DNA from: a virus
DNA length: 29,707 nt
Strand: one strand, 5' to 3'
Virus record (IMG/VR): IMGVR_UViG_646311944_000001
Location: 1 to 29,707 of that record
Shown here: positions 1,272-17,917 of the stretch, piece after piece
How the letters are laid out: every line of letters begins with the position of its first letter
Numbering within the stretch: the stretch's first letter is position 1
Made by a program: the position numbers and the translations under genes
The notes under the pieces: model-generated
The model's database searches: none
Seen by the model: the letters and a program-made list of their open reading frames with translations, nothing else
Told to the model about the DNA's origin: nothing

Positions 1272-2590
1272 TGGCTATGTCTAAAATGAAACTTAAAGAA
1301 CTTCGCAAAAAATTAAGAACTGATTTTGAATTTTTTGTTAAAACTGTATTAGGTGCTGAATTACACAAAGCTCAGAAAGAAATAGTAAAAGCATTCTTTT
1401 CAGGCAAATATAAAACGATAATTGTAGCGGCAGGTAGGAGGTTCGGTAAATCAAAACTTATGTGCTTTCTTTTGATATTTCTGAGTTGCACTCAAAAGGA
1501 TAAGAAATTTGCCGTTATTGCCCCATACTATGCAAATGCGAGGATAATCTTTAAAGAACTTAGAACATACATTGAGAAAAATAAAACACTGCAAAAACTC
1601 GTTAAGAGAATTACAGAATCTCCTTACATGGTTATTGAATTCAAAACTGGATGTATAATAGATTTTAGAAGTGCTGATAACCCTACGTCTATTAGAGGAG
1701 AGAGTTATCATCTTGTTATCCTTGATGAGGCTGCATTCATCAAAGATGATGTTGTGAAATATGTAATTAAACCATTGTTGATAGATTATGACGCACCTTT
1801 AATTGAAATCTCTACTCCAAATGGGCATAATCATTTTTATGAGTCATTTTTGATGGGAGAAAATAGACAAAATAGACACATTTCATTTAGATTCCCAACG
1901 TGGTCAAATCCATTCTTACCTAAAAGTGTAATTGAAGAGATAAAGCGAGAATTTGGAGAAGATTCCTTAGTTTGGAAACAGGAGTTTTGTGCAGAGTTTA
2001 TTGATGACCAGGATGCTGTGTTCAAGTGGGAGTATATCCAGCAATGCATTGATTCCAATATCGAATTGCTAACTGTCGGGGAGAAGGGGCATAGATATGT
2101 TATGGGAGTTGATTTGGCTAAATATCAGGATTATACGGTTATTATAATATTGGATGTTTCTGAAAATCCGTATAAACTCGTGTATTTTGAAAGATTTAAG
2201 GATAAACCATATTCCTATGTTGTTGAGAGAATAAAAGAACTTTATATAAAATTTAAGCCCGTAGTTTGCGTTGATAGCACTGGGGTAGGAGACCCTGTTG
2301 TAGAGCAACTTGAAGACTGCAATCCAATTCCGTTTAAATTTACGAATCAGTCTAAAATGCAACTAATAACTAAACTTCAAACAGCGTTGGAGAGAAAAGA
2401 GGTAATATTCCCATATATTGACACTCTTATTACGGAATTGAAGTATTTTAGGTATGTAAAAAAGAAAACTACGATTTCTTTTGAAGCTAAACCTGGAATG
2501 CACGATGATTGTGTATGTTCTCTTGCATTAGCTGTATATGCTGCTGATAAGGCAACGAATAACATAATCGTTGATTACTTCAGCTATTGA
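1271..2590 (+). CDS. terL: Terminase large subunit
   Basis: Walker A GRRFGKS, Walker B VILDEAAF, motif III STP, nuclease motifs GVDLAKYQDYT and HDDCV. Confidence 0.97.
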   Translation: MAMSKMKLKELRKKLRTDFEFFVKTVLGAELHKAQKEIVKAFFSGKYKTIIVAAGRRFGKSKLMCFLLIFLSCTQKDKKFAVIAPYYANARIIFKELRTYIEKNKTLQKLVKRITESPYMVIEFKTGCIIDFRSADNPTSIRGESYHLVILDEAAFIKDDVVKYVIKPLLIDYDAPLIEISTPNGHNHFYESFLMGENRQNRHISFRFPTWSNPFLPKSVIEEIKREFGEDSLVWKQEFCAEFIDDQDAVFKWEYIQQCIDSNIELLTVGEKGHRYVMGVDLAKYQDYTVIIILDVSENPYKLVYFERFKDKPYSYVVERIKELYIKFKPVVCVDSTGVGDPVVEQLEDCNPIPFKFTNQSKMQLITKLQTALERKEVIFPYIDTLITELKYFRYVKKKTTISFEAKPGMHDDCVCSLALAVYAADKATNNIIVDYFSY

Positions 2591-2600
2591 GGTGGTTTAA

Positions 2601-4604
2601 ATGTCAGAATCCGAAGGAAAGATTGTTGTTGATTATTTCGGTGAATCTCCAGCTACTAAAACCACAGAGGTGGGAGTTAGTGATAGGACTCCAGCCGATA
2701 TAGAACTTGGAGAGTTTTCAACAATCCAGATGATTGATATAACAGATGAAGCAAACTTAGAAGGGGCTTTCCTCATTGATGAGAAAGTTAATTTGGCATT
2801 GCATTCATTGATTTATGACATAATTTCAAATTGGACATTAAAAGGCGATGAAAAGCAAATTGAAGAAGTTAAAAAGTGGCTATATGAGACGGGTATAATC
2901 TTTTCAAAAAATGCCACTGCTACGATTATCGAAATGCTTAGGGATTACTTTATTTATGGAAAGGCGATTTACCAGATTGTTTGGGAAAATGGAAAAATTG
3001 TAAGATTGCATAGGTTAGACCCAAAGGCTACTAAAATAATTAGGAATCCCTTCGGAGATGATAGGATTATTATTCATGATGCTACAATTGATGGACAGAT
3101 AAGAAAAATCGGATTTATTGATTTGGAAAGGAAAGAAGAGGTTTTAAATTTATTTACGGTTAAAAGTGAAATGGTTCAGGTTTGGTTAGACATCAATGAC
3201 ATAATTCTGCTTGAAGGAACTTCATTAATGGCAAGGTGTGTTAATGCGGTTTATCAAAAGCAGAAGTTGTTAAATGAGATTTGTGCGTATGTGAACGAGC
3301 ATCAAGCCATCCCTCCGGTCCAAATTAAAATTGGGCAGATACTAAGCGATGGCAGAGGCATTGGACTTCCAGATGGAACTAACATTACAGTTGAGAAGTT
3401 TAAAGAAATGCTGAAGAATTATGCCAATGACATCACAAAACTAAAATACAAAGGAGCTGTAGCGACACCTTGTTATGTCGATTATAATCAGATTGACATG
3501 AAAATCAATTGGGAATACATTAAATTCATTTTAGACAAGTATGATGAGATTATTTTCAATGCATTTTATAGCTCAGAAGGATTATGGAAATCTGGAGTGG
3601 CAGATTATAGAAGGAAGGATATGAGAAGGGAAAGGCTGAAGCTAATAAGGTCTATGCAGGCGAAGATTAAGGAATTGATTAATGAGTTAATTAGAATGAA
3701 CTTTGGAGACATTGATGTTGAATTTACTTTTATAACAGATGACACTGAAGAGCTTTTAGAGAAATCAGAGTATTACAAAAATGTAGCAGATACAATTAAA
3801 TCCTTAGCAGATATTGGAGCTTCAGAAGATACACTAAAAAGAATTGCTCAGGAGTTTGGCATTGAGTTGGATTTGGCATTGCAGAAGGGACAGGCTGAAA
3901 TGTTTGCAGAAATGTTTGCAGAGATTGATAAAGAAACAATTGAAGCGATAGCACAAACATTAGTTGATAAAATTATGGAAAAGATAGAAAATGCTACACT
4001 TGAAGTTAAAGATAAGGCCATGGAAATCATTCAGGAAAATAAAGGAAAGATAACAGCAACAGCTTATAGAAAAATTAGAGCTTTAATAAATAAAGAATTT
4101 CAGGGATTGGATTTTTCAGGAGAAATCCAGCAGGCTTTAAGTGATATTGTTAGAGTAACAGGATTAGAAATTGATATTGATAAAGGAGTCATACAGTTTG
4201 TTAAAAATTATACCTTCGACCTGTGCAAAAAATTAACAGAGAATCAGAAGGCGAGATTAAGACATATTTTGTTAGAAGAACTTAGCACAACTGAAGATAC
4301 AAACATAACGCAAAAAATCATGGACACATTAAAAACAACAAGACATGAGGCAGAAAGAATAGCAAGGACTGAGCTTAGTAGGGCCTATGAATGGTCAAGA
4401 TATGAATATTATAAAAAGTATGCTGAGAAAAATAAGGTTAAAGTCATGGTAAGATGGTATACGAGAAAGGATGGCAAGGTATGTCCAAAATGTAGAGTTT
4501 TGGAGGGGAAAGAATGGGAGATTGATAAAGTTCCAGTTAAACCACCGTTGCATCCAAACTGCAGATGTAGCTTAGGATATAAAATTGTGGATGTGAAAAA
4601 ATGA
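2601..4604 (+). CDS. Portal protein fused to a MuF (phage Mu gpF-like) head morphogenesis domain
   Basis: Follows TerL; C-terminus has MuF signature AERIARTE...DGKVCPKC...PPLHPNCRC; single 667-aa frame. Confidence 0.85.
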   Translation: MSESEGKIVVDYFGESPATKTTEVGVSDRTPADIELGEFSTIQMIDITDEANLEGAFLIDEKVNLALHSLIYDIISNWTLKGDEKQIEEVKKWLYETGIIFSKNATATIIEMLRDYFIYGKAIYQIVWENGKIVRLHRLDPKATKIIRNPFGDDRIIIHDATIDGQIRKIGFIDLERKEEVLNLFTVKSEMVQVWLDINDIILLEGTSLMARCVNAVYQKQKLLNEICAYVNEHQAIPPVQIKIGQILSDGRGIGLPDGTNITVEKFKEMLKNYANDITKLKYKGAVATPCYVDYNQIDMKINWEYIKFILDKYDEIIFNAFYSSEGLWKSGVADYRRKDMRRERLKLIRSMQAKIKELINELIRMNFGDIDVEFTFITDDTEELLEKSEYYKNVADTIKSLADIGASEDTLKRIAQEFGIELDLALQKGQAEMFAEMFAEIDKETIEAIAQTLVDKIMEKIENATLEVKDKAMEIIQENKGKITATAYRKIRALINKEFQGLDFSGEIQQALSDIVRVTGLEIDIDKGVIQFVKNYTFDLCKKLTENQKARLRHILLEELSTTEDTNITQKIMDTLKTTRHEAERIARTELSRAYEWSRYEYYKKYAEKNKVKVMVRWYTRKDGKVCPKCRVLEGKEWEIDKVPVKPPLHPNCRCSLGYKIVDVKK

Positions 4605-5050
4605 AGTTTATGGACATAACAGTTAAAGTGGATAAATCTCTGCTGACAATAGCTGAAGAATTAGAAGACAACCTTAAGGATGCCATTAAGCAGGCGACAT
4701 TGGAAGTTAAAGAGGAAGTTTTGGACAATATCAGAAGAGGATATGTGAAATTGAATTATCCCCCAATATCTGAAAGTTATAGAAAACAGTTAGAAAGAAA
4801 AGGGCTTCTACCTCATGAGGGGCTAATTTCACCGAGAGAAGATAAAAAGAAATTGGAAAAGTCAATAAGCCATTCATTTAGAAGGGGAGGGTTAGAAGGT
4901 GTTATAAAAACTTCAAGACCTTACGCAATCTTTGTAGAACAGGGGACAAAGAAAATGCCTGCTCGTCCATTTTTCCAGCCAGCACTAAAGGCAAAAAAAG
5001 AGCGTGTTGAAGAGTTAATAAAAAAAGCAATTGAAGATGCGTTAGATTAG
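4601..5050 (+). CDS. HK97 gp10-like neck/tail component
   Basis: Motif YAIFVEQGTKKMPARPFFQPAL. Confidence 0.85.
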   Translation: MKFMDITVKVDKSLLTIAEELEDNLKDAIKQATLEVKEEVLDNIRRGYVKLNYPPISESYRKQLERKGLLPHEGLISPREDKKKLEKSISHSFRRGGLEGVIKTSRPYAIFVEQGTKKMPARPFFQPALKAKKERVEELIKKAIEDALD

Positions 5051-6990
5051 CCTTTAATACTTTCTAAAATATCAATTAACAGCTCTTTTTCATATTCTAA
5101 ACCTAACTTAACCCTTTTATCATTTGGTTTTATGCTAAACTCAACATAATTAACTCTTTTTTGAATAATGTTCCAAAACTTATCATTAGTAAATACTATA
5201 TCGCCTATTTTTGGTGGGATTAAATCTAAATAAGTTTCAATCTCCCAAACAGGCCTTGGATTTGCATATTGGGCGAGATAATCTCTACCTATTTGTTCAG
5301 CTTCTTCAACCGTTTGGAGGGAAGGGATGTAAAGTGTTTCCATCAGTCTTTTTCCATATTTGGCGATAGATTGTTCATCAACGACGATAACAGTTATCGG
5401 CTCTAAGGATTCTGCAATATCGAAGTAAGTACTGTCAGTATAGTAATTATACGTTATTTCTACGATATCTGATGCATTCATCGAATCTAAAATGTTTAAA
5501 TAGCAATCCCCATAAGCGTCGTTAGTTATTGTGTAGTTTGTCGTCTCTGTTCCGTTAATTTTCACACTAATTGGTTCAATCAGTTTATATTTTAACTTAA
5601 AAGATGAATTTACACCATCATAAACGAATTGTTCTGTTTGTGGCGTTCTATCGTTAATATTGCTCTTATAGTTGTCTTTTGTTGCTTTTACAACTAAATC
5701 ATATCTCCCAACAGGTAGGTTACTTATATCCATATATGCCGTGTATTCCCCATTTCCATTGTCAGTGTAGGAATTTCCAAAGTTGTCTGTTATCGTGCAT
5801 CCTGAAACTCTATTTCCAGCTTTATCTTCAACGATTACTGTAATTTTAGCTGGCTCTGTTGATGCATATAGATATTTGTCTTTATCTGTAAGAACTGAAG
5901 CTTTTAAAACATAATTTCCCCATTCTGAAACTCTTAAACTAACGGTTGTTGATGCTGGCTCATATCCACTTTTTTGTGCAGTTATTTCAACTTCTACGGT
6001 ATCATCTACTTGAGGGAGGGGATAAGTTATTTGATATTGCCCGTTTCCTAAACTTGTAGCTACAGGGCTAATAAGACAGCCATCAACTGGTATTTGATTG
6101 TTATCTATGACTTTGATATTTATTATGGCATTTCCATCAACTCGCCAGCTGTATTCTTCTTTATCTGTTTCCACTTCAGCAATTTGAAGAGATGGAGTTG
6201 TTGTAAAGTCGAAATTATTCAAATCATTATTATCATCTGGAATATCTGGTAAGTTAGGGTCCAATGGTGGGCTTGAATCTGGAGCATCATCATTCAAGTC
6301 AGGGTAATCACGTGCAGAAGGGACATCTGAAGGTATTTCAACATCTACAAAGCGAATGAAAGTTAATTGTCCGAGAGAATATTTAATCATGACTTTATAA
6401 CTTCCTGGTTCGTCATAAGTGTGTGAGTGTGCAACAAAAATTCCAGCTGTTGTATTGTCAATTACCGCATAACACCATCTTTTATCACTGATTAGATTTC
6501 CATTTGAATCTCTATATAGATTAGCTGTTTCTATCGTTCCATCTCCCCAATCAACTGTAACGGTTCCCGAACTAAAGACATCAGGGCTTGGAACAGTATA
6601 AGTGTGTGATAATTCTGCCTCTGCAACATTATCTCCAATGTGCACTGTTGGAAAAGTTATTTCAGTTGAATTAGCGATATCTACTGCTGAAACATCAACA
6701 TGTTTGTCTTCATAGTCAATATCCCAATAAATTGCATAAACTTCACAAAGATATCCATTGTCACCTACAAGACACTCAAATGTCAAACTCCCGTTATTTG
6801 GAACTCTAACATCTACTTTATTTCCATTAACGTCTATGTATCTTAGACCTACACCGTTTCCTCCATCCGCACCAGTGTCATCTGCTTCGTAGTTTGTAAC
6901 TGTAACAGTCCAAATAGAGCCTTTTGAGAATACTGCCAACCCTACGAAATCATTTAAAAAAACTGTTTTTCCGAGTTTTGAAATATCCAT
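5047..6990 (-). CDS. Tail tip/adhesin protein with PKD- and Ig-like domains and a hub-type C-terminus
   Basis: VTVDWGDGT...HTYDEPGSY (PKD-like), beta-rich repeats, C-terminal DEQSIAKYG...EEAEQIGRDYL typical of tail hub proteins. Confidence 0.75.
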   Translation of the reverse strand: MDISKLGKTVFLNDFVGLAVFSKGSIWTVTVTNYEADDTGADGGNGVGLRYIDVNGNKVDVRVPNNGSLTFECLVGDNGYLCEVYAIYWDIDYEDKHVDVSAVDIANSTEITFPTVHIGDNVAEAELSHTYTVPSPDVFSSGTVTVDWGDGTIETANLYRDSNGNLISDKRWCYAVIDNTTAGIFVAHSHTYDEPGSYKVMIKYSLGQLTFIRFVDVEIPSDVPSARDYPDLNDDAPDSSPPLDPNLPDIPDDNNDLNNFDFTTTPSLQIAEVETDKEEYSWRVDGNAIINIKVIDNNQIPVDGCLISPVATSLGNGQYQITYPLPQVDDTVEVEITAQKSGYEPASTTVSLRVSEWGNYVLKASVLTDKDKYLYASTEPAKITVIVEDKAGNRVSGCTITDNFGNSYTDNGNGEYTAYMDISNLPVGRYDLVVKATKDNYKSNINDRTPQTEQFVYDGVNSSFKLKYKLIEPISVKINGTETTNYTITNDAYGDCYLNILDSMNASDIVEITYNYYTDSTYFDIAESLEPITVIVVDEQSIAKYGKRLMETLYIPSLQTVEEAEQIGRDYLAQYANPRPVWEIETYLDLIPPKIGDIVFTNDKFWNIIQKRVNYVEFSIKPNDKRVKLGLEYEKELLIDILESIKG

Positions 6991-6999
6991 ACTAACACC

Positions 7000-7587
7000 T
7001 TATCTTTGATTTGTAACTTTAACAACATTTACAATTTTATCATTAATTGTCTGTATCATTCTGCATCTTCTATTCCAGCTGAAAATTAAATGCGTCATAA
7101 CATCATCGTAGCTCGTTGCTAAATCCCTTAATTCGTTAGTTTGGGAATCGTAGTAAAAACTCGTTTTAGCAAAGTGAAAGGCATCTTTTAAAAGCTGGTA
7201 TTTGTTAGTTTCATTCTCATATCTGAGATTTACCTTTGCATCAACTGAAACTGCGTTTATTATGTTAATTTCATCACACAATTGATTTAGTAAATCCTGT
7301 AAATAACCAGAATAGCCCCCAATAAAAGCTATGTTTTTTAACTTAATCAGAGGGTCATAAGCGGTAAATTTTGAAACTCTACTGTTTGCTGTGCTTTCAT
7401 GTTCCAACTGCACAATGTAGCCTCTAAAAAGTGTAAATTGTCCTTCTACAATTTCTACAAAATCAAAATATCCAACTGCATCGTTAAAAGGTGTGGTTAT
7501 GGAAGCAGATGAGATTTTATTCATATATTGCTTAATGCTAATGTCAGTAAATTCCGTTTTCTTGCCGTTAATGTAAAGCTCAGTCAT
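7000..7587 (-). CDS. Tail hub/baseplate protein (N-terminal hub-like part)
   Basis: LFRGYIVQLE...FTAYDPL and IVNVVKV motifs; position distal to tape measure. Confidence 0.65.
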   Translation of the reverse strand: MTELYINGKKTEFTDISIKQYMNKISSASITTPFNDAVGYFDFVEIVEGQFTLFRGYIVQLEHESTANSRVSKFTAYDPLIKLKNIAFIGGYSGYLQDLLNQLCDEINIINAVSVDAKVNLRYENETNKYQLLKDAFHFAKTSFYYDSQTNELRDLATSYDDVMTHLIFSWNRRCRMIQTINDKIVNVVKVTNQR

Positions 7588-8615
7588 TATTTCACCATAA
7601 CTATCGTCAAATCAGCAACATAGATGTTATCAAATCCAATAACTTTTCTAATACTGCATTTTTCAAGGGTTCCATAAAATATTTGATTATCATACTGAAC
7701 CAACAAAGTTCTTGTTTTTCTAAACTCTTCTAACTTCAAATAATCATCAATCGTATTTAGAAGCACACTAACGCTGAAGGATTTTGTAGTGTTCAAATAA
7801 GGAACCGCTTTTGTTTCACCATCTTCAATAGCATATTTTCCAACAGCTCTGCCGAAGTCCATACTTCTATCAATAACTTTGAATGCATATCTGTTGATAG
7901 CGAAATCAGAAGCTACTTTTTCCTCATAAGAAACCTTTACACTTGTTGCAGGGAAGATATAAGCATCTAAAGAAACTAATGAATCGTTAGCCGTGTCTCT
8001 TGCATAGATGTAGAATCTTCTTTTGGAGAGTATGTAAGGAGCTTTAACTTGGAGATGTATGGCTATGATATTCCCATTAGCATCCGTATATGTTTCTAAA
8101 ACTCTATAAGGCAATACTTGGTTAGTATAATCATCAACAACTGTGATTTGGGAAATATCTTTGATTAGATTATTCACATTAGTAATTATCGCATCGTAAA
8201 TTGCGTAATATTTGTTAATTGACAAATTCAGTAAGAATTGCTTTGATAAATTAGGTCTTTGCAATGTGGCATCTAAATTGCTGGTATATCTTGGTTGTTG
8301 GTCATCGAAGTAAAGATAAAACACATCATTAGCTGAACCCGTTACATTATGCACTACAATGCTCATTTCGTTAGCAGTTTCGGAATAAATATCGAAAGGC
8401 AAGACATTACCAGCAGAATCTGTAATTCTTAGTTCCTGCCCTCTATAATCCCAAAATGCTGTAAATTCTGGTGGAATATACAATTCTACATCTTCATTGT
8501 TGGCATCTTCACTAAGTAATAATTGAACTCTTTTGTAAAGCTTAATTGTAGCTAATGTTTGAATATTTGTTGTAAAAGTATTTGGAAAATTCGGAATTAA
8601 TGAAAATGTTGTCAT
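7587..8615 (-). CDS. Distal tail protein with DUF2341-like domain
   Basis: ELRITDSAGNVLPF...FYLYFDD resembles DUF2341; C-terminal region Dit-like by position. Confidence 0.55.
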   Translation of the reverse strand: MTTFSLIPNFPNTFTTNIQTLATIKLYKRVQLLLSEDANNEDVELYIPPEFTAFWDYRGQELRITDSAGNVLPFDIYSETANEMSIVVHNVTGSANDVFYLYFDDQQPRYTSNLDATLQRPNLSKQFLLNLSINKYYAIYDAIITNVNNLIKDISQITVVDDYTNQVLPYRVLETYTDANGNIIAIHLQVKAPYILSKRRFYIYARDTANDSLVSLDAYIFPATSVKVSYEEKVASDFAINRYAFKVIDRSMDFGRAVGKYAIEDGETKAVPYLNTTKSFSVSVLLNTIDDYLKLEEFRKTRTLLVQYDNQIFYGTLEKCSIRKVIGFDNIYVADLTIVMVK

Positions 8616-8619
8616 ACTA

Positions 8620-9816
8620 TCACTCTATTTTGAACTCTGTTTTTGCATCAAAGTCAGCAGTATCTGCAACTGCATATAATGTAACACCTGTTGGAACTTC
8701 AACTGAATAATCTCCTTTTGCATCAATCGTGGCTGTAGCTATTGTATTTCCTGCAGAATCGGTTATATTGACCGTTGCATTTGGAACTATATCGATATAG
8801 CCGTAGAAGTAAAGAATTTCGATAGTTGAACCTGATGCTGGAGCTGTTGTGAATGTTATTGTTCCATTGGTATAATCAACTGTGAAATCTGTCCCTTCAA
8901 CTAATTTCGTTCCATCAACCCAAACACGCACTTTTGGGATTATGGGTTTATTTTGCACTGTAAATGTTGTCGTAGCTCCATCTCCTGTAAAGGTTTCTAC
9001 AGCTTTTGAAACATTGATTGTTGTTAATGTCGCAATGATTATCGTTGTGTTTGCATATTGTAGTGTTCCTACAGTGGACGATGGTTCTTTCTCAGCGTAT
9101 TTTCTTACATAAATCCAATCAAACCTAACGTCTATGTCCCAACCTCCTCTTGTAGCATATAAACCAATGTAGTCATTTATCGTAACATTTCCAGTTTCAT
9201 AATAGTATATTTGCGTTCCAATTATATCATCAGAAACGTAGTTTGTTTTAGGTAATTCAATTAAACTACTGTCAATGTCGATATATGGTATCTCGCCACC
9301 ATTACCAGCCACGTAATTATATTTCACACCAATAACAACATTTTGTGCAGATATACTCTTTTTGATTCCAATATTGCTATTAGCATCGTCAGGATGTAGT
9401 CTTATCCAGCTTGTTTCAGGTATATCTACTGTTGTTGATGATGTTCCATATAATTCCCAGCTGTTTAAATCAAAATCGTCAAATACCTCAAAAACACTGC
9501 TCCCATCACTTGCATCAACTGCATCTGGATTTCCACACCATAATAAGATAGTTGTAGAGCCACCTGCTGGAATACTCGGCACTTTTACCCAGATTTTAGC
9601 TATTTGATTGGCAGAATCCCACTCTTCTATCCAATGTGATATTAACGTCTCACCATCTGAAAGTGTGAATCTAATATCACTTCCATCATCTTTAGCTTTT
9701 GAAAAATCAAAGTTATTAGCATCTAACTGAATAAGCACTTGAAAATCTAATAAATCATAAGAATTTGGATTAGAAATATTTACAGTGGCATAATATGTCC
9801 ATCCATCCAATGCCAT
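8620..9816 (-). CDS. Tail fibre/receptor-binding protein with DUF2341 domain
   Basis: FDFSKAKDDGSDIRF...HWIEEWD...IWVKVP...WCGNP (DUF2341); later FTGDGATTTF...FTTAPASG tail-fibre module. Confidence 0.8.
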   Translation of the reverse strand: MALDGWTYYATVNISNPNSYDLLDFQVLIQLDANNFDFSKAKDDGSDIRFTLSDGETLISHWIEEWDSANQIAKIWVKVPSIPAGGSTTILLWCGNPDAVDASDGSSVFEVFDDFDLNSWELYGTSSTTVDIPETSWIRLHPDDANSNIGIKKSISAQNVVIGVKYNYVAGNGGEIPYIDIDSSLIELPKTNYVSDDIIGTQIYYYETGNVTINDYIGLYATRGGWDIDVRFDWIYVRKYAEKEPSSTVGTLQYANTTIIIATLTTINVSKAVETFTGDGATTTFTVQNKPIIPKVRVWVDGTKLVEGTDFTVDYTNGTITFTTAPASGSTIEILYFYGYIDIVPNATVNITDSAGNTIATATIDAKGDYSVEVPTGVTLYAVADTADFDAKTEFKIE

Positions 9817-9820
9817 GCCC

Positions 9821-10297
9821 TCACCATGTTATTGTTAGTTTCCCATTGAGAACTAAGATTGTTTTTACCTTTGTTTCATCTAACCCGGTCATTTTAGCAA
9901 TGTCTTCAATCGAATAACCATTATTCCAATAATTTAGCACATCAACAGCCTTAGATATTAAATCGGAAATCGCAATCCCATAATCTTTTGAAAATTCTAA
10001 GCTAATTGCTCCCATAAGGGCTAAAGCATCAACTGAACCAGTTTGCTCATAAGTTGTTTTATAATTTTGATAATCGTTAATTCTACTTATCTGGTCTTTA
10101 ATCACGTCAGTATCATCTTTATATTGTACAATCAGCTTTTGTGTTGTCCTATAATACTCAATTTTCTCAACTGAACAAATATTGCCATTATCTAAAGTTA
10201 CCTTTTTTTGGTATTCAACTGAACCCAATCCGTTAATATCTGACTCTGAAACGTTTTCTATTGTCATGATTTTAGTTTGTGGCTGGACGGCTGCCAT
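9821..10297 (-). CDS. Hypothetical tail-associated protein
   Basis: GGTGA RBS, position in tail operon; C-terminal HTH-like segment GYSIEDIAKMTGL. Confidence 0.6.
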   Translation of the reverse strand: MAAVQPQTKIMTIENVSESDINGLGSVEYQKKVTLDNGNICSVEKIEYYRTTQKLIVQYKDDTDVIKDQISRINDYQNYKTTYEQTGSVDALALMGAISLEFSKDYGIAISDLISKAVDVLNYWNNGYSIEDIAKMTGLDETKVKTILVLNGKLTITW

Positions 10298-10309
10298 TTA
10301 TATCACCTT

Positions 10310-10426
10310 TTAAGCTGTGAATGTCCAAACGCCAGATTCAACTGTTGTTGTTGGGATTTGGTAATTTGAAACGTCTATAACAACTTCAACGACTAATCTT
10401 TCAGTTTCATCAGCATAGTGCCACAT
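10310..10426 (-). CDS. Small 38-aa ORF (MWHYADETERLVVEVVIDVSNYQIPTTTVESGVWTFTA), not in the ORF track
   Basis: Translated by hand; GGTGATG RBS; exactly fills the gap between tape measure and next gene. Confidence 0.65.
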   Translation of the reverse strand: MWHYADETERLVVEVVIDVSNYQIPTTTVESGVWTFTA

Positions 10427-10431
10427 TTACA

Positions 10432-12624
10432 TCACCACATTGTTAATTGCTGTTTCAGAACCTTCTGGACAGCCAGGGCGATGTCTTCAGGGCTCGCATC
10501 GGTTTTAGAAACGTGTATATTGACGTTGATATTTGGGCTTGAGTTAGTAATATTCTGTATTGTTGTAACTTGCTGGCTTATGGGAATGCTTTTTGGATTT
10601 ATCGCCATTGTTGTCGTTATTTTTCCAACTGCAGCTTGAATTCTTGATTTATGCTTTTCAATTCCTTCCGCAATTGTTTCGATGAATCCTGGACCTACTT
10701 TATCTAATCTTGATAGAGGTCCCTCTTTTGCTGGTGAGTGAGGTAAATGGTCATCAATCCAGCTGAGTAAATCTAAGATTTTTTGCTTAATTTCATTAAT
10801 TTTACTGGTGAATCCTCTGATAAATTCAGTAATGAGCCCAACTCCAGCTTGATAAAATCTACTTGGCAGTGATTTTAAGAAATTAATTATCTCATTCATT
10901 ATATTCTTGAGTTTGTCTCTAATTCCAAATAGATTCTTATCCCATGCTAATTTTATAAGCCCCCACGGTCCAAGCAGGGAGTATTTCAGAGCTTCAAGAA
11001 TCTGTGTTTTATGAGTCTTAATTTGGTTAATTAACCACTTAATTCCATTAATAAATAGTGTCAGCTTCTGCTTTACTGCACTAATAGCTGAATTTACAAT
11101 ATCTCTTATACCAAACCAATTGTTTTTCCAAGCTAAGTATAGAACTGCCAGCACTGCAACTATTGCCAATATTGGTGCTGTTATAGGTGCGATTGCCGCT
11201 ATAAATGCACCTATTGCTCCTATGGCTGCTGACACTGCCCCAGCAATTGCTCCAAATGAAATCCCCAAAGCCCCAATGACTGAAACTATTTCCAATGTTG
11301 AAGATATCGCCATTGCAAATGCTCCAGCCAGTAATATTATAGGCCCCACAATTGCAGCAACTGCAGCAGCTAATCCTACAAATGCTCCGATTGCATGTTT
11401 TATTGGTGTTGGAAGCTTGTTAAAAATATCTAATATAGGTTTTAGAGCCATTAGAATGATTTTACCGACAGTAGCCATTCCTTGTGCAACTGAAACTGCA
11501 AATTCTTTTATTGCCGGCATTGCTTTAATCAGCATGTCTAAGAATTCTTTGATATTGCCTTTAGAGTCCTTAAAAATCTCTAATTTTATATTTTCAATTG
11601 CTGATTTCAACTGCTGTATCTTATACTCAACAGTGTTCGTCATTTCTCTGTATTTTTGTTCAGCCACTCCTGCAGAATTTTCCAATATCCTAACGTATTC
11701 CTTATAAGCATCTCCTCCTTGTTGCATTAATTGTAGTAATGCTGAACCTGCCTCAGTTCCGAATATTTTAAATATCTCAGTTGCTGACAACCCTTTTTTC
11801 TTAATATCATCTAAAATATCTCCTAAATTCCTAAGTTTTCCTGATGCATCCATTACTTTAATTCCATACTGCTCTAATGCTTTCTGAACCTTAGTATCTG
11901 CCAACTCAGTTAATACTTCTCTCAATCCTGTCCCTGCATCTTCTCCTCTTCTACCTGCCTTATAAAACATCATCAAAGCAGCTACTGTATCTTCCAAACT
12001 TAACCCCAATGCCCTTGCTGCTGGTGCCGCATATTTCAAGGAGTATTGTAATTTTTCAACAGTCGCTGGAGAGTTGGCACACGCTTGAACAAAAACATCA
12101 ACGGCTCTACCGGATTCTTGTGCTGACATTCCAAATGAGTTCAATGTTGAAACTACTAAATCTGTAGCTGTTGATAAGTCGGTTTGTGCTACCGTAGCCA
12201 GATGTAGAACATTGGGAATTGCTGCAATTATTTCATTTGTTTTCATCCCAGCACTTGCCATGAGATACATTGCTTCAGCAGCTTCTGAAGCAGTGTATGC
12301 CGTCTGTGCCCCCATTTGCATAGCTGTTTGTGTCAATTTCTCAAATTCTTCAGCCGTAGCTCCAGTTATTGCTTTAATCTTATACATCTGCTGTTCAAAT
12401 TCTATACCTGTTTGAATTGCTGAATACATTCCTGCAACAAATGGAGCTGAAAATGCTGTAACTCCAGCTCCAACCATTGCCATACTCTTTCCTACCCTAT
12501 CAAAAACATCAGCCATGTTTTTAACTCTATTTTCCAATCTATCAATGTTTTGTTGTATTTTTTGAAATACTGCCGTTGCTTTATCCACCGCTGTAATTAT
12601 GATTTGCAGATTAGTGTCAGCCAT
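10432..12624 (-). CDS. Tape measure protein (TP901-type core)
   Basis: FEQQMYKIKAITGAT...TASEAAEAMYLMASAG core, hydrophobic Ala/Ile tract, W/F repeats; 730 aa. Confidence 0.95.
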   Translation of the reverse strand: MADTNLQIIITAVDKATAVFQKIQQNIDRLENRVKNMADVFDRVGKSMAMVGAGVTAFSAPFVAGMYSAIQTGIEFEQQMYKIKAITGATAEEFEKLTQTAMQMGAQTAYTASEAAEAMYLMASAGMKTNEIIAAIPNVLHLATVAQTDLSTATDLVVSTLNSFGMSAQESGRAVDVFVQACANSPATVEKLQYSLKYAAPAARALGLSLEDTVAALMMFYKAGRRGEDAGTGLREVLTELADTKVQKALEQYGIKVMDASGKLRNLGDILDDIKKKGLSATEIFKIFGTEAGSALLQLMQQGGDAYKEYVRILENSAGVAEQKYREMTNTVEYKIQQLKSAIENIKLEIFKDSKGNIKEFLDMLIKAMPAIKEFAVSVAQGMATVGKIILMALKPILDIFNKLPTPIKHAIGAFVGLAAAVAAIVGPIILLAGAFAMAISSTLEIVSVIGALGISFGAIAGAVSAAIGAIGAFIAAIAPITAPILAIVAVLAVLYLAWKNNWFGIRDIVNSAISAVKQKLTLFINGIKWLINQIKTHKTQILEALKYSLLGPWGLIKLAWDKNLFGIRDKLKNIMNEIINFLKSLPSRFYQAGVGLITEFIRGFTSKINEIKQKILDLLSWIDDHLPHSPAKEGPLSRLDKVGPGFIETIAEGIEKHKSRIQAAVGKITTTMAINPKSIPISQQVTTIQNITNSSPNINVNIHVSKTDASPEDIALAVQKVLKQQLTMW

Positions 12625-12625
12625 G

Positions 12626-12754
12626 TTACCAGCCCAACAAACACCCTATTATGGACAATATAAACAATAATCCGATAACTATGAATATCACCAAACAAAT
12701 AGCTCCAAAAATTAATATTGTTCGTCTTTTCCACCTTTCAGTATCTACTGGCAT
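12626..12754 (-). CDS. Small 42-aa single-TM protein (MPVDTERWKRRTILIFGAICLVIFIVIGLLFILSIIGCLLGW), not in the ORF track
   Basis: Translated by hand; AGGCGAT RBS-like; stop 1 nt before tape measure ATG. Confidence 0.6.
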   Translation of the reverse strand: MPVDTERWKRRTILIFGAICLVIFIVIGLLFILSIIGCLLGW

Positions 12755-12990
12755 GTGTATCGCCTTAGGATTTCTTTATACTGTAGTGACAATTCAGATT
12801 CTTTAACCACTTCAACCTTACAACCTTTCTTACTTTGCTCTTTTCCAGCCACGTTTAAAGCAACTGCCTGATTGATATTAAAATCAACTATTGAGAGCTT
12901 TAGTAAATCAGAAGGTAAGCAATTATATCTTTGAGCTAAGGCATCTAACAATTCACTATTCTCCCTCACGAAAGGATGCCACATTTTCAT
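12745..12990 (-). CDS. Tail assembly chaperone, downstream (gpT-like) frame
   Basis: Overlaps upstream chaperone in +1 frame; LAQRYNCLPSDLL motif typical of gpT-like parts; precedes tape measure. Confidence 0.7.
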   Translation of the reverse strand: MKMWHPFVRENSELLDALAQRYNCLPSDLLKLSIVDFNINQAVALNVAGKEQSKKGCKVEVVKESELSLQYKEILRRYTCQ

Positions 12991-13324
12991 TTACATTTAG
13001 CTGGGATAGAACATAGTTCATAAGGAAATCCTTATCTCTACCGTCTAATTGTTCCCATTTAATACCTTTTGGCTCTACAATGCACTTTTCAACTAACTTA
13101 GGTAGAATTTCAACAAAATTTTTTATGAACTCTGGATTTTTAGATATATTCTCTTTAATATTGTCTTTTGACGTTGGATTTTTAAGTAAATCTTGCATTA
13201 TAGGTATATCTCCCATAACTTCTAAAATATCATAAGCTGATAACGTCTTAACTTTAAATACAAATCCACTTGGCAATTTTACTTCGGGATATGCTTTTTT
13301 CAAGTATTCCTCAACGGTTACCAT
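12956..13324 (-). CDS. Tail assembly chaperone (gpG-like)
   Basis: Between tail tube and tape measure; GGTGAT RBS. Confidence 0.75.
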   Translation of the reverse strand: MVTVEEYLKKAYPEVKLPSGFVFKVKTLSAYDILEVMGDIPIMQDLLKNPTSKDNIKENISKNPEFIKNFVEILPKLVEKCIVEPKGIKWEQLDGRDKDFLMNYVLSQLNVNENVASFREGE

Positions 13325-13335
13325 GTAATCACCAC

Positions 13336-14109
13336 TTATTCAGGTAGGTTTTCATAGAATATTATATCTTCATTGGCATTTGAAACGACAAAGCTAATTT
13401 CTTCCTTAATGTGTTCTTCTTTACCCCTGATGTAGTCAAACTTAGGTTTGTCTAAAATTGTTACGTTTCTCATTTGCACACCTTGAAGATGTCCATCAGC
13501 TCCCTTAACGAATCCAACTAACGTGAATTTTGGAACATTAACGGGTTTTCCACTTTTAACCCCTGCCACTGTGGATATTGTAACGGTTTCAGTAGTCTGC
13601 AGGGTTGCAGGTAATATGATGCTATCAATCTGCGAAAATAACAAATTTCCAACGATAGTTTCTGCAGTTGTGTAATTGAACTTCTCTGTTATTGGATTTC
13701 CAAAAGCGTCTTTTCCTTGGACTATAATTATATCTGGAGTTACTGTTGCAGTTGTAGATATTGAGACTTTAATGATTGCTGGGATTGTAGGCTGTGCTGT
13801 AGGAGTAATTGTTTGTTCCGCCCCTGTTCCAGTAGCAGTGGCTAAAGTTTCTTCCACAGACTCCATCGCATCAATACCCATAAACAAACTCCAGAACTTA
13901 TGTGTTCCCGCCAATGTTACGAACTTTCCTTTGAAATCTATAAACTGCGATACATCTTTGTAAATACCTTTAGTAGTTTCAGTAGAGAATTCTTTATGTT
14001 TCAACTCGCACTCAAATTCCACAACAGCTACTTCCTCGCCGTTAATAAGAAGCGTTCCTCCACCTTTAAACCTCTCGTATTCTGTAGTTGGGTAATATAC
14101 ACTTCCCAT
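13336..14109 (-). CDS. Major tail (tube) protein
   Basis: Position before chaperones; beta-rich, with internal Thr-rich insertion. Confidence 0.75.
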   Translation of the reverse strand: MGSVYYPTTEYERFKGGGTLLINGEEVAVVEFECELKHKEFSTETTKGIYKDVSQFIDFKGKFVTLAGTHKFWSLFMGIDAMESVEETLATATGTGAEQTITPTAQPTIPAIIKVSISTTATVTPDIIIVQGKDAFGNPITEKFNYTTAETIVGNLLFSQIDSIILPATLQTTETVTISTVAGVKSGKPVNVPKFTLVGFVKGADGHLQGVQMRNVTILDKPKFDYIRGKEEHIKEEISFVVSNANEDIIFYENLPE

Positions 14110-14118
14110 TCAAATCAC

Positions 14119-14532
14119 CTATTCGGTTATTGCATAATCCAAAACAGGAATGAATTTTTGGTCTTCAATATCTTTATCATCAATAACATCTTGAATTTTT
14201 TTAAGTCTGTAAATAATCGCCTGAACTAACTCTTTAGCCCTTTTTTCATATTGCTCTATCTTGTCTCTCTCATAATTGTCAATTTGCAGTTTTTCCCAAT
14301 ATTGGATTAAGATTCTTGAACCTGCGTAGAACAAACATGCCTCTTTTGCTAATGTCTGAAGTTCAGTATCTGTTGCTGGGAGTTCTGTATTAACTTGGGC
14401 ATCAATCCACGCAGATGCCACTGTAATAGCAGTAGTTAAACTGTCCTTGATATCCTGAAAAGGGAGTTTTAGATTTAAGAAACTATATAACTCTGTTTCA
14501 GTGCAATAAGCCATAATCTCAACCTTATGCAA
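14119..14532 (-). CDS. Head-tail adaptor/connector
   Basis: AYCTETEL...ASAWIDAQ...AKEACLFYA helical pattern; directly after capsid gene. Confidence 0.75.
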   Translation of the reverse strand: MHKVEIMAYCTETELYSFLNLKLPFQDIKDSLTTAITVASAWIDAQVNTELPATDTELQTLAKEACLFYAGSRILIQYWEKLQIDNYERDKIEQYEKRAKELVQAIIYRLKKIQDVIDDKDIEDQKFIPVLDYAITE

Positions 14533-15328
14533 TGTTTAGTTTGATAACCCCTCCCTCATGTAAAATACCGCCTCCAAACTTCTCTTTAACATACCATGCA
14601 AATTTTTCGGGCGGGTCAGTGTCAGTATCAACTCTAACAACTGTCGCTGGAAGAGCCACAGGGAATTCAACAACCAATGGATTAGCTTCAAATAAAATAC
14701 CTGTTCCAGCGTCGATTTCGGTGCATGGGATAATCTTAACGTTTAAATCAGTTTGAAGGACTTTTAATCCACTATTTAAGTAATCGTTGAATCCTAATTG
14801 CCCGACATCTTCTGGATTCAATATCAATTTTGGTTTTTGGACAGGAACTTTGTTTTTTCTCATTTGGTTTATAGCTTGGAATATTGAATTTACCTTATCC
14901 GTTATGGTTGCAGAGCTCCAAGTAACATTTTTTTCGTTTGGTGTTTGGGACAACACATCAATGACTTTTTTATTCTCTTGCTCTACTAAATCATACAATA
15001 CTGCTGTATTAATTGCTTTTTCAACAGGGAATCCTGTTTTTTTAGCTGCTAAAATGGTATCTGCATCAATCTCAATAAGTGGTGATTTATAAACTTCAAG
15101 CTTAATGTCAATCTCTGTTTTTTCCAATTCAGCCAGCTCAGGTGTTGCAGTTTTAGCTGATTTCTTTGTAGAGTTTTTTAAAGTGTATTTTATCCTTGTA
15201 ACTAAATCCTTAAACTGCGGAACTGGTGTAACTGGAACTTCTTTTAATAAGGTTGAAATTGGCTCTAAGTCAGTGAGGATTTTATTTTCGATCAATTGAA
15301 ATTCAGCTTTTGTTAGCAACTGAACCAT
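14525..15328 (-). CDS. Major capsid protein (HK97 fold inferred)
   Basis: Position after protease/scaffold/decoration; LILNPEDV and terminal GGVIKL patterns. Confidence 0.8.
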   Translation of the reverse strand: MVQLLTKAEFQLIENKILTDLEPISTLLKEVPVTPVPQFKDLVTRIKYTLKNSTKKSAKTATPELAELEKTEIDIKLEVYKSPLIEIDADTILAAKKTGFPVEKAINTAVLYDLVEQENKKVIDVLSQTPNEKNVTWSSATITDKVNSIFQAINQMRKNKVPVQKPKLILNPEDVGQLGFNDYLNSGLKVLQTDLNVKIIPCTEIDAGTGILFEANPLVVEFPVALPATVVRVDTDTDPPEKFAWYVKEKFGGGILHEGGVIKLNIA

Positions 15329-15338
15329 TCATACCACC

Positions 15339-15722
15339 TTATAATCCTACTTTGATTTCATAGATTCCATCAGAATCTGATGATTGAGGAACTATGACTT
15401 TCAAGACCTTTCCAATGACTGTTTCAAGTGTTGCATTCCCATCATCGATTCTAACTTGTCCAGTTGCAGCATCATAGAATAAAATGTCCCCTTCAGCTGC
15501 TGGAGTTGCTACCCATGATGATGTTGTAGCATCATAAGCATAAGTTGTTGCTTTCAATTTTGTGACTCCATCCACAACCACTGGAACCTCATCTCCAACA
15601 TCATAAGAATCTACATTATCCACATCATCAACAACTCCCAAAACTTTCCCATTTGCAGTAAAAACTGTTTTTGGATAGGTTGTAGCTGTAGCAGTATATG
15701 ATTTAATGTATTTGTATGCCAT
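15339..15722 (-). CDS. Capsid decoration/cement protein
   Basis: LGVV...VGDEVPVVVDGV...AAEGDILFYD...VIGKV pattern typical of head decoration proteins. Confidence 0.7.
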   Translation of the reverse strand: MAYKYIKSYTATATTYPKTVFTANGKVLGVVDDVDNVDSYDVGDEVPVVVDGVTKLKATTYAYDATTSSWVATPAAEGDILFYDAATGQVRIDDGNATLETVIGKVLKVIVPQSSDSDGIYEIKVGL

Positions 15723-15732
15723 TTAGACCACC

Positions 15733-16176
15733 TCATTCAATGCCATATCTTCTCCATGGGTTGATGTCTTTCCCTGGCTCTGCAAAAGAAGCCCCAACAA
15801 TTTCAGTTGTCTTTTTTGTGTTAATATCCACCTTAGCAAAGACGTCTAAAACATCTTCAACTATTTTACAGTTAGCAAATACTTCTTTATCAATGCCGAA
15901 CTTTGAGCATATTTGTTCAATCTTCTTTTCCTTTTCCATTTGTGCAAAAATTTCAGCTTTTGTTTTTTCAACCGCTTCCCTAATTGCTTTATCTTTTTCC
16001 TCTGCAAACTGCTCTTTCAACATTTTAGCCTGCTCCTCTAACTTTTCTTTAATCATCTGCTCTACTTCATCTTGCGTATAGACCTTAATACCAAAATCTT
16101 CCGCAAATTGTTCTAATGCTTTCTTAACATCGTCTGGATTTTGATTAGTTTGGTTTTGAGCTGTCATAACCATCAC
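15733..16176 (-). CDS. Scaffold protein
   Basis: VYTQDEVEQMIKEKL coiled-coil; between protease and capsid. Confidence 0.7.
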   Translation of the reverse strand: MMVMTAQNQTNQNPDDVKKALEQFAEDFGIKVYTQDEVEQMIKEKLEEQAKMLKEQFAEEKDKAIREAVEKTKAEIFAQMEKEKKIEQICSKFGIDKEVFANCKIVEDVLDVFAKVDINTKKTTEIVGASFAEPGKDINPWRRYGIE

Positions 16177-16963
16177 ACTTTTTCTTTAATGATTCTGGCA
16201 TGCCTCTGTCAAGTGGATTATTAGGACTATACTTATGCCCTATTCCAAGTTCTAAAGCCCTTTTAACTGCGAAATTCCAGAGATACTGCCATTCTTCACG
16301 ACTATACATTTTGTTATAAGTTGGATGATTGAATAACTTTGAAATATACACCAAGGCAGCTTTAACTCTCGCAGGAGTATCGCAAGGGAATTTCCAGTTA
16401 GCCCTATCAGCAAAGAGCTCATCAGGAACGTCTTTATACTTTGATGGCTTTGTTTTATGCCCATGCTCTTTTGATGAAGGAGGTTTTGCATTTGCCATTG
16501 CTATTGGTGCAAAATTTAGAATTTTGGCATCTGTCATTTTGGGAGTGCTGTTAATACAAATTGCCAATCCATAAGGAAACACATCAACAACCTTTCCATT
16601 TTGAACTGCTTTTAACCACTCCGCACTAACTCCAACTTGGTTATTTTTCAGATATTCTGCAACTTGAGGGTCAAAAACTGCAAACTTACAATAAGCTTTG
16701 CCTTCATCATCGGTCCAGACATCAATAATGTAGCCCTTAAAGGATTGCGGGTCTTGGAATGGTAGAATGTGGTCGATATCAACATGCTTTCCAATTAGGA
16801 ATTTTGCTCTTTCTTTAACCAAATCTGGCGTAATCCCAGCTTTTCTATACTGCTGGTCGTTTGGGTCGTAAAATAAACACTCAACAATTGCTACTGGGTC
16901 GTATGGTTTTCTATCACCCTTTGCAAATTCTATTTTTCCAATTCTGCAAGTGAAAGTGTCCAT
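16145..16963 (-). CDS. Prohead protease with C-terminal DUF6582-like domain
   Basis: GKHVDIDH and VGVSAEW protease-like motifs; C-terminal FADRANWKFPCDTPARVKAALVY. Confidence 0.7.
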   Translation of the reverse strand: MDTFTCRIGKIEFAKGDRKPYDPVAIVECLFYDPNDQQYRKAGITPDLVKERAKFLIGKHVDIDHILPFQDPQSFKGYIIDVWTDDEGKAYCKFAVFDPQVAEYLKNNQVGVSAEWLKAVQNGKVVDVFPYGLAICINSTPKMTDAKILNFAPIAMANAKPPSSKEHGHKTKPSKYKDVPDELFADRANWKFPCDTPARVKAALVYISKLFNHPTYNKMYSREEWQYLWNFAVKRALELGIGHKYSPNNPLDRGMPESLKKKCDGYDSSKPN

Positions 16964-17035
16964 GTTTCCACCAAGATAAAAAGAAAAAAAAGAAATTAAA
17001 GCTTCTGCAACACAATCTTCTCAAGTAGGTCTAAC

Positions 17036-17332
17036 TTACCTCTGAGCTGGGCTACCTCCGATTCCAACGCCCCCAGCTTTGCCTCTTAATGCTCTGATTT
17101 CTTCTTTTAATTCATCGATCTCTTTATCTTTCTTAGCCAGTTCTGCTTTTAGTTCTGCAATTTTCTCACTTTGTGATTTTTCATGATAGAATTGTTCCAT
17201 TTCACTTCTTCTTACCAAAGTATCAACTTTGTCTTTTCTTATTGTTTCTTGTGCTATTTTTTCAACATAATCGCTCTTTTTAGGAACTAAATCATCTATT
17301 GCATCAGTATCTTTCTTCCCAAACAATGCCAT
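17036..17332 (-). CDS. Hypothetical coiled-coil protein (MALFGKK...)
   Basis: AAGGTG RBS before ATG 17332; first gene of late structural operon. Confidence 0.7.
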   Translation of the reverse strand: MALFGKKDTDAIDDLVPKKSDYVEKIAQETIRKDKVDTLVRRSEMEQFYHEKSQSEKIAELKAELAKKDKEIDELKEEIRALRGKAGGVGIGGSPAQR

Positions 17333-17400
17333 AACGAACACCTTTTTGTTGTATTGTATTAGAATGTGGGGCCCCACAGCCCCTATGCAAAACCGCACCG

Positions 17401-17420
17401 TTAGAATTTTTAAATTCTGA
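17401..17420. promoter_or_regulatory. Palindromic late-promoter/operator element TTAGAATTTTTAAATTCTGA
   Basis: 19/20 match to 766-785; ~70 nt upstream of head/tail operon. Confidence 0.65.
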
Positions 17421-17479
17421 TTTTATCTGTAAATTTAAATTTATAAATACTCAATTCGAAAAAATAAAAAAGTTCTTCC

Positions 17480-17917
17480 CTAAGTTCTTCCCTTCAACGG
17501 TCTCCCGTCTTTCTTTAATAATACTTGGCCATAAATTCTATACCTCCGATATAATTCCTTACACCACCTGTAACTAATCCCAACTTTTTCGGCTATATCT
17601 TTTAGAGTCATTCCCTCTTCAAACATTTTTTCGATTAACTTTAATTCTTTATTTGATAATGAGTATTTCCTTTTATTTCTTTTATTTTCTTTCTCCAGAT
17701 AACGTAAATCAATTAAAAAATAGATAACCTCCCCATTCAACCCCTTTACCTTTGAGATTATTTTCTTTTTCATCAGCTGTCTTAATCTTTGAGAAATATG
17801 TCCCAAACCATTGCCCGCATCTATATTATAAACTTCTCTAATCTCTCTCGTCGATACTGCCCCACCATTATTGATTATTAAGTTTAGAAGCTCTTCCTGA
17901 GAAACCATCTTTATCAC
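17480..17917 (-). CDS. Double-HTH transcription regulator (candidate late-gene activator)
   Basis: N-terminal winged HTH and C-terminal HTH (GMTLKDIAEKVGISYRWCKELY); start may be ATG 17908. Confidence 0.7.
   Translation of the reverse strand: MIKMVSQEELLNLIINNGGAVSTREIREVYNIDAGNGLGHISQRLRQLMKKKIISKVKGLNGEVIYFLIDLRYLEKENKRNKRKYSLSNKELKLIEKMFEEGMTLKDIAEKVGISYRWCKELYRRYRIYGQVLLKKDGRPLKGRT

Follow-up and report, generated by a model that had tools for sequence, protein, structure and literature searches.

A candidate UUU_CGU site for +1 frameshifting in the tail assembly chaperone genes of an integrated Methanocaldococcus virus

The window, by which we mean the whole stretch of 29,707 nucleotides that was analyzed (IMG/VR virus record IMGVR_UViG_646311944_000001), is, judged by its gene content, an integrated tailed virus, in which a large terminase, a portal/Mu-F protein, tail fibre-like genes and an integrase are present in addition to the tail genes described below. 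The closest named relatives of the host genome are Methanocaldococcus and Methanothermococcus, and the genes studied here are part of an integrated tailed virus in Methanocaldococcus, a hyperthermophilic methanogen, whose genome consists of three replicons of 1,746,329, 10,704 and 4,704 bp with a GC content of 31.6%. All genes around the proposed shift site lie on the minus strand (Table 1). The two overlapping reading frames that we call G and T are located between a putative tube gene and the tape measure gene, as expected of a G/GT-type chaperone pair, and the tape measure gene starts 121 nt past the T stop codon with one 42-aa ORF in between. This small ORF overlaps the end of T by 10 nt and showed no family match in Pfam or PHROGs. 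The 257-aa putative tube protein is likewise without a Pfam or PHROG match and gave weak ESM Atlas leads only, with YomU_Tube clusters at 0.82. Elsewhere in the window the late genes are divided in an unusual way: plus-strand genes at 831-5050, among them the large terminase (1271-2590), the portal/Mu-F protein (2601-4604) and an HK97 gp10-like gene (4601-5050), converge on the minus-strand head-tail operon at 5047-17917. Within this operon a 398-aa tail protein (8620-9816, minus strand) combines DUF2341 (4.7e-26) with T7 tail-fibre N-terminal, DUF2460 and Ig-like segments and is probably the receptor-binding fibre.

Table 1: Features of the head-tail region around the proposed shift site, in window coordinates.
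Feature	Position	Strand	Remark
Head module: 272-aa ORF, possible prohead protease	16963-16145	minus	
Head module: putative scaffold protein, then major capsid protein		minus	weak phrog_264 match (capsid protein)
Putative tail tube (major tail) protein, 257 aa	13336..14109	minus	assigned by position only; directly upstream of G
G, predicted short-form tail assembly chaperone, 122 aa	12956..13324	minus	standard decoding
TAA closing the +1 frame upstream	12991..12993	minus	5' limit for any shift
Proposed shift site UCC_UUU_CGU	12968..12976	minus	E, P and A site codons
T segment, 74 codons	12748..12969	minus	+1 frame; stop TAG at 12747-12745
Small ORF, 42 aa	12626..12754	minus	membrane helix predicted (one); follows T, ahead of the tape measure gene
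Tape measure protein, 730 aa	10432..12624	minus	PF10145 3.9e-46; phrog_1533 5e-111

To G only sub-threshold family matches could be assigned (DUF7391, E 2e-4; phrog_4336 tail assembly chaperone, E 0.016). An AlphaFold (AF2) model of G with 13 homologues reached a pLDDT of 74 and a pTM of 0.63; its best BFVD matches are annotated tail assembly chaperones from mycobacteriophages (E ~1e-5 to 1e-3), and against the PDB it showed weak matches to the HK97 TAC 2ob9 and to YqbN 3klu (TM 0.44-0.49, probability 0.3). The model thus gives moderate support to a tail assembly chaperone fold of G. Together with the position of G directly upstream of the PF10145 tape measure gene, these fold matches bear out the G/GT-type chaperone identity that an earlier note on this DNA had proposed from the letters alone, and the best explanation for 13324-12956 and 12969-12745 (minus strand) is that they encode a putative lambda-type tail assembly chaperone, the former being its G part and the latter its T part.

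The 3' end of G (13324 to 12956) reads ...AAT GTG GCA TCC TTT CGT GAG GGA GAA TAG, with TCC at 12976-12974, TTT at 12973-12971, CGT at 12970-12968 and TAG at 12958-12956. The earlier note had seen an in-frame TCC TTT CGT four codons before the stop and a downstream frame (12990 to 12745) that is +1 relative to G; the sequence confirms both, CGT being the fourth codon ahead of TAG. As the downstream frame is opened by the TAA at 12993-12991, a shift must fall within the 32 nt from 12990 to 12959. The extension is open from the shift site in the +1 frame, as expected of a UUU_CGN (PA-X-type) site. Reading TTTC as one step gives ...NENVASF-VRENSELLDALAQRY..., a GT protein of 192 aa made up of G residues 1-118 and 74 T-frame codons, in exact agreement with the product ...ENVASF-VRENSELL... 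that had been predicted. The predicted tryptic junction peptide of GT is DFLMNYVLSQLNVNENVASFVR and its counterpart in G is DFLMNYVLSQLNVNENVASFR. In host ORFs of at least 200 aa we counted in-frame TTT_CGT 6 times in 406,801 codon pairs, which translates into a chance of about 1.6e-4 for one such motif in the 11-codon overlap; the in-frame motif at this place is more than chance.

Other signals in the overlap were considered as well. The -1 slippery heptamer X_XXY_YYZ, the usual form in chaperone genes, is absent as a functional signal from the G/T overlap, where the T frame is +1 and a -1 shift from G reaches a stop after 6 codons. By inspection, no codon other than TTT re-pairs in the +1 frame within the minimal window (AAA TTT CGT GAG GGA GAA stop), and a -2 shift was rejected as tRNA-Phe is unable to re-pair on CCU. 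For a conserved RNA structure we used RNAalifold on 11 loci from -30 to +110 and obtained zero pairs, and a single-sequence fold downstream of the motif gave z = -1.6; a structural RNA stimulator was rejected on these results. A prfB-style upstream stimulator resembling a Shine-Dalgarno sequence was also dismissed, as the alignments of the relatives show nothing conserved past the E-site codon.

In order to follow the motif through evolution we compiled 13 related loci with G homologues of 46-100% protein identity, taken from vent metagenomes and from genomes of the Methanocaldococcus, Methanothermococcus and Methanococcus types. Conservation of the motif had been suggested earlier as a check on the frameshift, and it is complete: TTT CGT stands in frame near the end of G, with T at +1, in all 13 loci. 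The codon ahead of it varies (TCC, CCC, ACC, AAC, AAA) and so does the codon behind it (GAG, GAA, AAA, GCG), and TTTCGT is the sole invariant hexamer in the nucleotide alignment of 11 relatives from -30 to +110. The motif is kept beyond the need of the protein sequence, as every locus uses an Arg codon that makes up 1.8% of the Arg codons of the host. Dual coding could explain part of the conservation of CGT, the GT being the start of a T-frame Val codon. In Methanocaldococcus sp. 10A (P0008) G ends directly after F-R, and in the Methanococcus-type relatives L020 and L021 the site is AAC_UUU_CGU. A more distant G homologue with 30% identity (L008:3001-3548, IMGVR_UViG_3300013885_000001) shows the opposite shift direction: its G frame ends AAC CCT TTG CAG AAA CAG AAA TAG and is followed by a 77-codon -1 extension with the canonical heptamer C_CCT_TTG, which suggests that homologous chaperones switch between -1 and +1 signals.

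The same relatives allow the T frame to be examined. Its differences are distributed over codon positions 1/2/3 as 336/103/510, it has 0 stops in 70 codons compared with 3-15 in the other frames, and 17 residues are invariant among 11 loci from codons 4-5 onward. Both N4 and S5 are invariant, even though the G stop codon overlies them at differing places. From this signature the T frame is judged to be protein-coding from the first codon past the motif. We are therefore dealing with two overlapping frames, the second of which is conserved as coding yet lacks a conserved start or ribosome binding site. G has its own Shine-Dalgarno sequence GGTGAT, and a GGTG-type Shine-Dalgarno sequence at the usual distance was found for 10 of 14 other starts examined in the structural genes of the window; none precedes ATG 12990, ATG 12984 or GTG 12969. 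In 8 of the 13 loci the overlap contains no ATG at all, and in 6 of 13 a T-frame stop lies 5 nt ahead of TTT.

That T starts on its own at ATG 12990 or 12984, or at TTG 12951, is on these data very improbable. The codons are present in the window and a GAGGGAG lies about 9 nt ahead of the TTG, but this TTG occurs in only 4 of the 13 loci, GAGGGAG is confined to the closest clade, and the invariant N4 and S5 are encoded upstream of it. A start at one of the two ATGs combined with an unconserved motif had been named in the earlier note as the outcome that would speak against a frameshift; what we find are ATGs without a Shine-Dalgarno sequence that are missing in 8 of 13 relatives, in a frame that is closed in 6, and a TTT CGT that is present in 13 of 13. 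Even less credible is a change of frame that does not involve the ribosome, i.e. transcriptional slippage, a sequencing or assembly error, or a dead provirus whose single GT gene has decayed. Frame relation and motif recur unchanged across 13 independent assemblies and another ~25 distinct contexts from metagenomes, coding signatures are kept in both frames, and the only homopolymer at the site is T3, a run too short for polymerase slippage.

A shift at UUU_CGU would also agree with the decoding capacity of the host. The rarity of CGU, another point raised beforehand for checking, was found as supposed: CGT is used 0.69 times per 1000 codons, which makes it the third rarest sense codon with 1.8% of the Arg codons. 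The tRNA set of the host genome contains a single tRNA-Phe (GAA) and a single tRNA-Arg (GCG) able to read CGU, by a G:U wobble, and the A-site CGU is expected to be decoded slowly. We also looked at the use of the codon pair in host ORFs of at least 200 aa, where TTT_CGN is depleted three-fold (12 observed against 38.7 expected, Poisson P 5e-7) and the other NNT_CGN pairs are not (observed/expected 1.17). As GTA_CGN and AGG_CGN are also depleted in host ORFs, the codon-pair bias before CGN must be broader than an avoidance of shift-prone sites, and we take the depletion of TTT_CGN as mild support for a shift-prone site. A second TTT_CGT with a long +1 ORF was encountered in the host on contig 1 (~939985-940986, minus strand), where a ThiL-like gene of 333 aa reads ATG TTT CGT GAG GGA GG... 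at a distance of ten codons from its stop. The +1 frame that continues from there holds an ORF of 163 codons for a membrane protein, and as this ORF starts at a GGAGG-ATG of its own, the case was set aside as an ordinary overlap and a coincidence.

In the mechanism that we propose most ribosomes would decode G up to TAG and produce the 122-aa chaperone, and a minority would pause with peptidyl-tRNA-Phe (GAA) on the P-site UUU, because the A-site CGU is very rare and read only via G:U wobble by the single tRNA-Arg (GCG). The tRNA-Phe would then re-pair from UUU (12973-12971) to UUC (12972-12970), whereby a G:U wobble is replaced by a G:C pair, and decoding would resume at GUG (12969-12967) in the +1 frame to yield the 192-aa GT (...NVASF-VRENS...). 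An RNA structure is seemingly not required for the slip. By analogy to lambda, the G:GT ratio set in this way would be a requirement for tail assembly around the tape measure protein. With a rare, wobble-read CGU and a tRNA-Phe that can re-pair, the classical model of a "hungry A-site" and "P-site re-pairing" fits well. Anatomy, conservation, T-frame coding signature, codon rarity and tRNA set can be read directly from the sequence; that the slip takes place, how efficient it would be and what G and GT do we infer from it. We consider a +1 shift at UUU_CGU the highly probable origin of GT.

To take a wider view of the T domain we used its motif D..AQRYG.LPS, which marks a large family, and a profile search retrieved 388 cluster representatives (E <= 1e-3). 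Pfam and PHROGs gave no significant family for T, and a tblastn search of T domains against isolate phages gave zero matches. Members of the family in IMG/VR directly precede lambda-type tape measure genes (PF09718, PF20155) and overlap the upstream ORF at G_GGA_AAG, the heptamer of lambda itself, or at A_AAA_AAG. An hhalign comparison of the Methanococcales T set with the T domains of other phages resulted in a probability of 98.6%, which is partly circular as the second set was found with the motif of the first. We then scanned IMG/VR for TTTCG located 10-40 nt ahead of the T-domain motif and obtained 35 loci. In 29 of these 35 the TTT is in the frame needed for a +1 shift, compared with one third by chance, and they represent 25 distinct contexts with a GC content of 0.28-0.71. 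In all 29 the TTT is in frame with an upstream open frame of 47-327 codons whose stop follows 4-33 codons later. At the A site they have CGT, CGA or CGC, at the E site NCC predominates (TCC 9, GCC 6, CCC 4, ACC 2), and the first codon past the shift is variable and usually no start codon. Proteins of these metagenomic +1 loci match bacterial phage proteins at 24-29% identity only.

A second scan relied on the motif only, and distinct T-domain junctions were counted among the 120 matches listed. Among the matches listed, 72 junctions need -1 and carry X_XXY_YYZ, corresponding to about 85% of loci, with G_GGA_AAG in 28, G_GGA_AAC in 19, A_AAA_AAA in 10 and other heptamers in 15. Four of the matches listed were scored as -1 and lack a canonical heptamer; they include L048 (on the same contig as L028), which by hand is +1 at TCC_TTT_CGA. 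Junctions with +1 and UUU_CGN number five among the matches listed, or six with L048, and three more among them have another UUU_Ynn (AGG_TTT_CCT, CCC_TTT_TCA, GCC_TTT_CTT); a +1 junction without UUU_Y was not found among the matches listed. Read from these junctions, the family rule among the matches listed is that the -1 junctions mostly have X_XXY_YYZ as putative signal and the +1 junctions all have an in-frame UUU_Y, mostly UUU_CGN.

Some members of the family deserve separate mention. In two relatives the T domain forms the C-terminal part of a single ORF (P0056, 190 aa; P0157, 173 aa), and toward its N-terminus P0056 is similar to the G of L026, a gene that overlaps its T at A_AAA_AAG; these ORFs may be natural in-frame GT fusions or reflect one-base differences in the A run. 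In L053 and L069 from IMG/VR G ends AAT TTT CGT TAA and the T domain is in the -1 frame, which could be due to an indel or to a -1 slip of one tRNA on U_UUU ahead of a likewise hungry CGU. In Halovirus HHTV-1 (KC292025; L034:3606-4521) genes 33 and 34, annotated separately, precede the tape measure gene. Gene 33 ends CAG TTT CCA GAA TAA (UUU_CCA); gene 34 lies in the +1 frame with respect to it and begins M-L-K-A-G-L-M-A-R-E-Y-G, similar to the T-domain motif. Either a UUU_Ynn +1 site or a T that is truly separate could be present here. The locus L029 is like HHTV-1, with GCG TTT CCT and an ATG preceded by GAGG. Since an ATG lies immediately ahead of the domain in L029 and in gene 34 of HHTV-1, T may be made on its own in some members of the family.

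With the wider family at hand, the remaining rival can be weighed, namely that T is translated as a protein of its own from the GTG (12969-12967) just past the motif, perhaps by ribosomes that stop at the G stop codon 9 nt downstream and re-initiate, and that TTT CGT is conserved by dual coding only. The GTG is present in 12 of 13 loci, the gene caller gave such a product (P0015, starting M-K-E-N-S), and nearly all of the 388 T-domain representatives are stand-alone calls of 40-107 aa. Such calls are, however, what gene finders give for any G/T pair, and in the two single ORFs of 173-190 aa the T domain is C-terminal. The GTG lacks a Shine-Dalgarno sequence, and in L007 its place is taken by GTA, the first start codon there lying inside the conserved domain. 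The same motif is followed by GAG in L028 and by GCA in HSTV-2, and in the wider set of +1 loci the codon past the shift is GAG, GCA, GTC, GAT or others, which means that UUU_CGN, rather than a start codon, has been kept. Dual coding accounts for part of the conservation of GT in CGT in the close clade, and does not do so in L028, HSTV-2 and the metagenomic set. We regard GTG initiation as unlikely and adhere to the +1 shift at UUU_CGU.

Sites of this kind have been described in other systems. The earlier note mentioned UUU-CGN proposals for haloarchaeal viruses, and these indeed exist: for the HF1 group a +1 shift at TTT-CGC inside a perfectly conserved stretch of 15 bp was proposed and experiments were called for (Dyall-Smith et al. 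2020, PMC7230728), and a review states for HSTV-2 that this virus "very likely" makes its G-T protein by +1 frameshifting (PMC5009743). In the HSTV-2 record (KC117376) a joined chaperone CDS is annotated, and the G frame reads AAG TCC TTT CGC AGA seven codons before its stop. The HF1-group/Hafunaviridae myoviruses (HF1, HF2, HSTV-2, Serpecor1, Hardycor2) and the virus studied here are alike in being tailed viruses of archaea whose tape measure gene is preceded by two ORFs, the latter of them in the +1 frame. In both, UCC_UUU_CGN stands in frame within a few codons of the first stop, a canonical slippery heptamer is lacking, and the shift is predicted only. They differ in their hosts, which are halophiles with a GC content of about 60% there and hyperthermophilic methanogens with 32% here, in being myoviruses compared with a tail module without a sheath gene, and in having CGC at the A site instead of a rare, wobble-read CGU. 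As CGC is a common codon in haloviruses, the rare-codon argument does not extend to them. In hhalign comparisons similarity to HSTV-2 was not detected, neither between the G profile and gp22 (0.3%) nor between the T profile and the HSTV-2 extension (0.2%), so that the signal is shared and the genes are not recognisably one family.

UUU_CGN sites are also found in amalgaviruses, fijiviruses and chronic bee paralysis virus. The best studied case is influenza A, and the attribution of UCC-UUU-CGU to its PA-X gene in the earlier note is correct: the +1 shift at this site was proven by mass spectrometry, has an efficiency of ~1%, uses a rare CGU and receives a contribution from the E-site UCC (Firth et al. 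2012, PMC3498833). Here the nine nucleotides are identical, and so are the proposed P-site slip of tRNA-Phe from UUU to UUC, the rare A-site CGU and the lack of a known stimulatory RNA structure. A shift of ~1% would suit a lambda-like G:GT ratio. The RNA viruses named above are, however, translated by eukaryotic ribosomes, whereas the DNA virus studied here would depend on archaeal ribosomes at about 80 °C; the shift is proven for PA-X and inferred here; and the E-site codon is not fixed among the relatives (TCC, CCC, ACC, AAC, AAA).

The tail-chaperone frameshift is conserved in long-tailed phages and known from lambda G/GT (Levin 1993; Xu, Hendrix and Duda 2004, as referred to in PMC5009743). 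The locus studied here shares with lambda the gene order and, as predicted, two products with a common N-terminus, and T-domain family members elsewhere precede lambda-type tape measure genes and overlap at the G_GGA_AAG of lambda. In contrast to lambda the shift would be +1 instead of -1, and it would proceed by a single-tRNA P-site slip next to a hungry A site instead of a tandem slip on X_XXY_YYZ. In archaea the sole experimentally established frameshift is a -1 event in fucA of Saccharolobus, and no +1 event is established in any archaeon (PMC8211752).

In summary the locus is in all probability a well-supported new example of a type of frameshift that had been predicted earlier for tailed viruses of archaea; the mechanism itself is not new. 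The Methanococcales add an independent lineage with unusually clean comparative evidence, and the occurrence of the same nine nucleotides as in influenza PA-X argues that the signal acts on something conserved in the ribosome and tRNA-Phe instead of on host-specific factors. For annotation this means that two small ORFs in front of a tape measure gene are to be fused at UUU_CGN if the second one lies in the +1 frame, and the family-wide rule for -1 and +1 junctions is useful in the same way. We are cautiously inclined to go further and to regard UUU_CGN as a general, structure-independent +1 signal that would work on archaeal, and perhaps bacterial, ribosomes as it does on eukaryotic ones, even at ~80 °C. 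It would then be the standard +1 alternative to the -1 heptamer in T-domain chaperones and would have been recruited independently in unrelated chaperone genes of Methanococcales proviruses, Hafunaviridae and uncultured viruses with a GC content of 0.28-0.71. If this is true, the Methanococcus-type relatives (L020/L021) would offer a genetically tractable system in which +1 programmed frameshifting could for the first time be proven by experiment in archaea.
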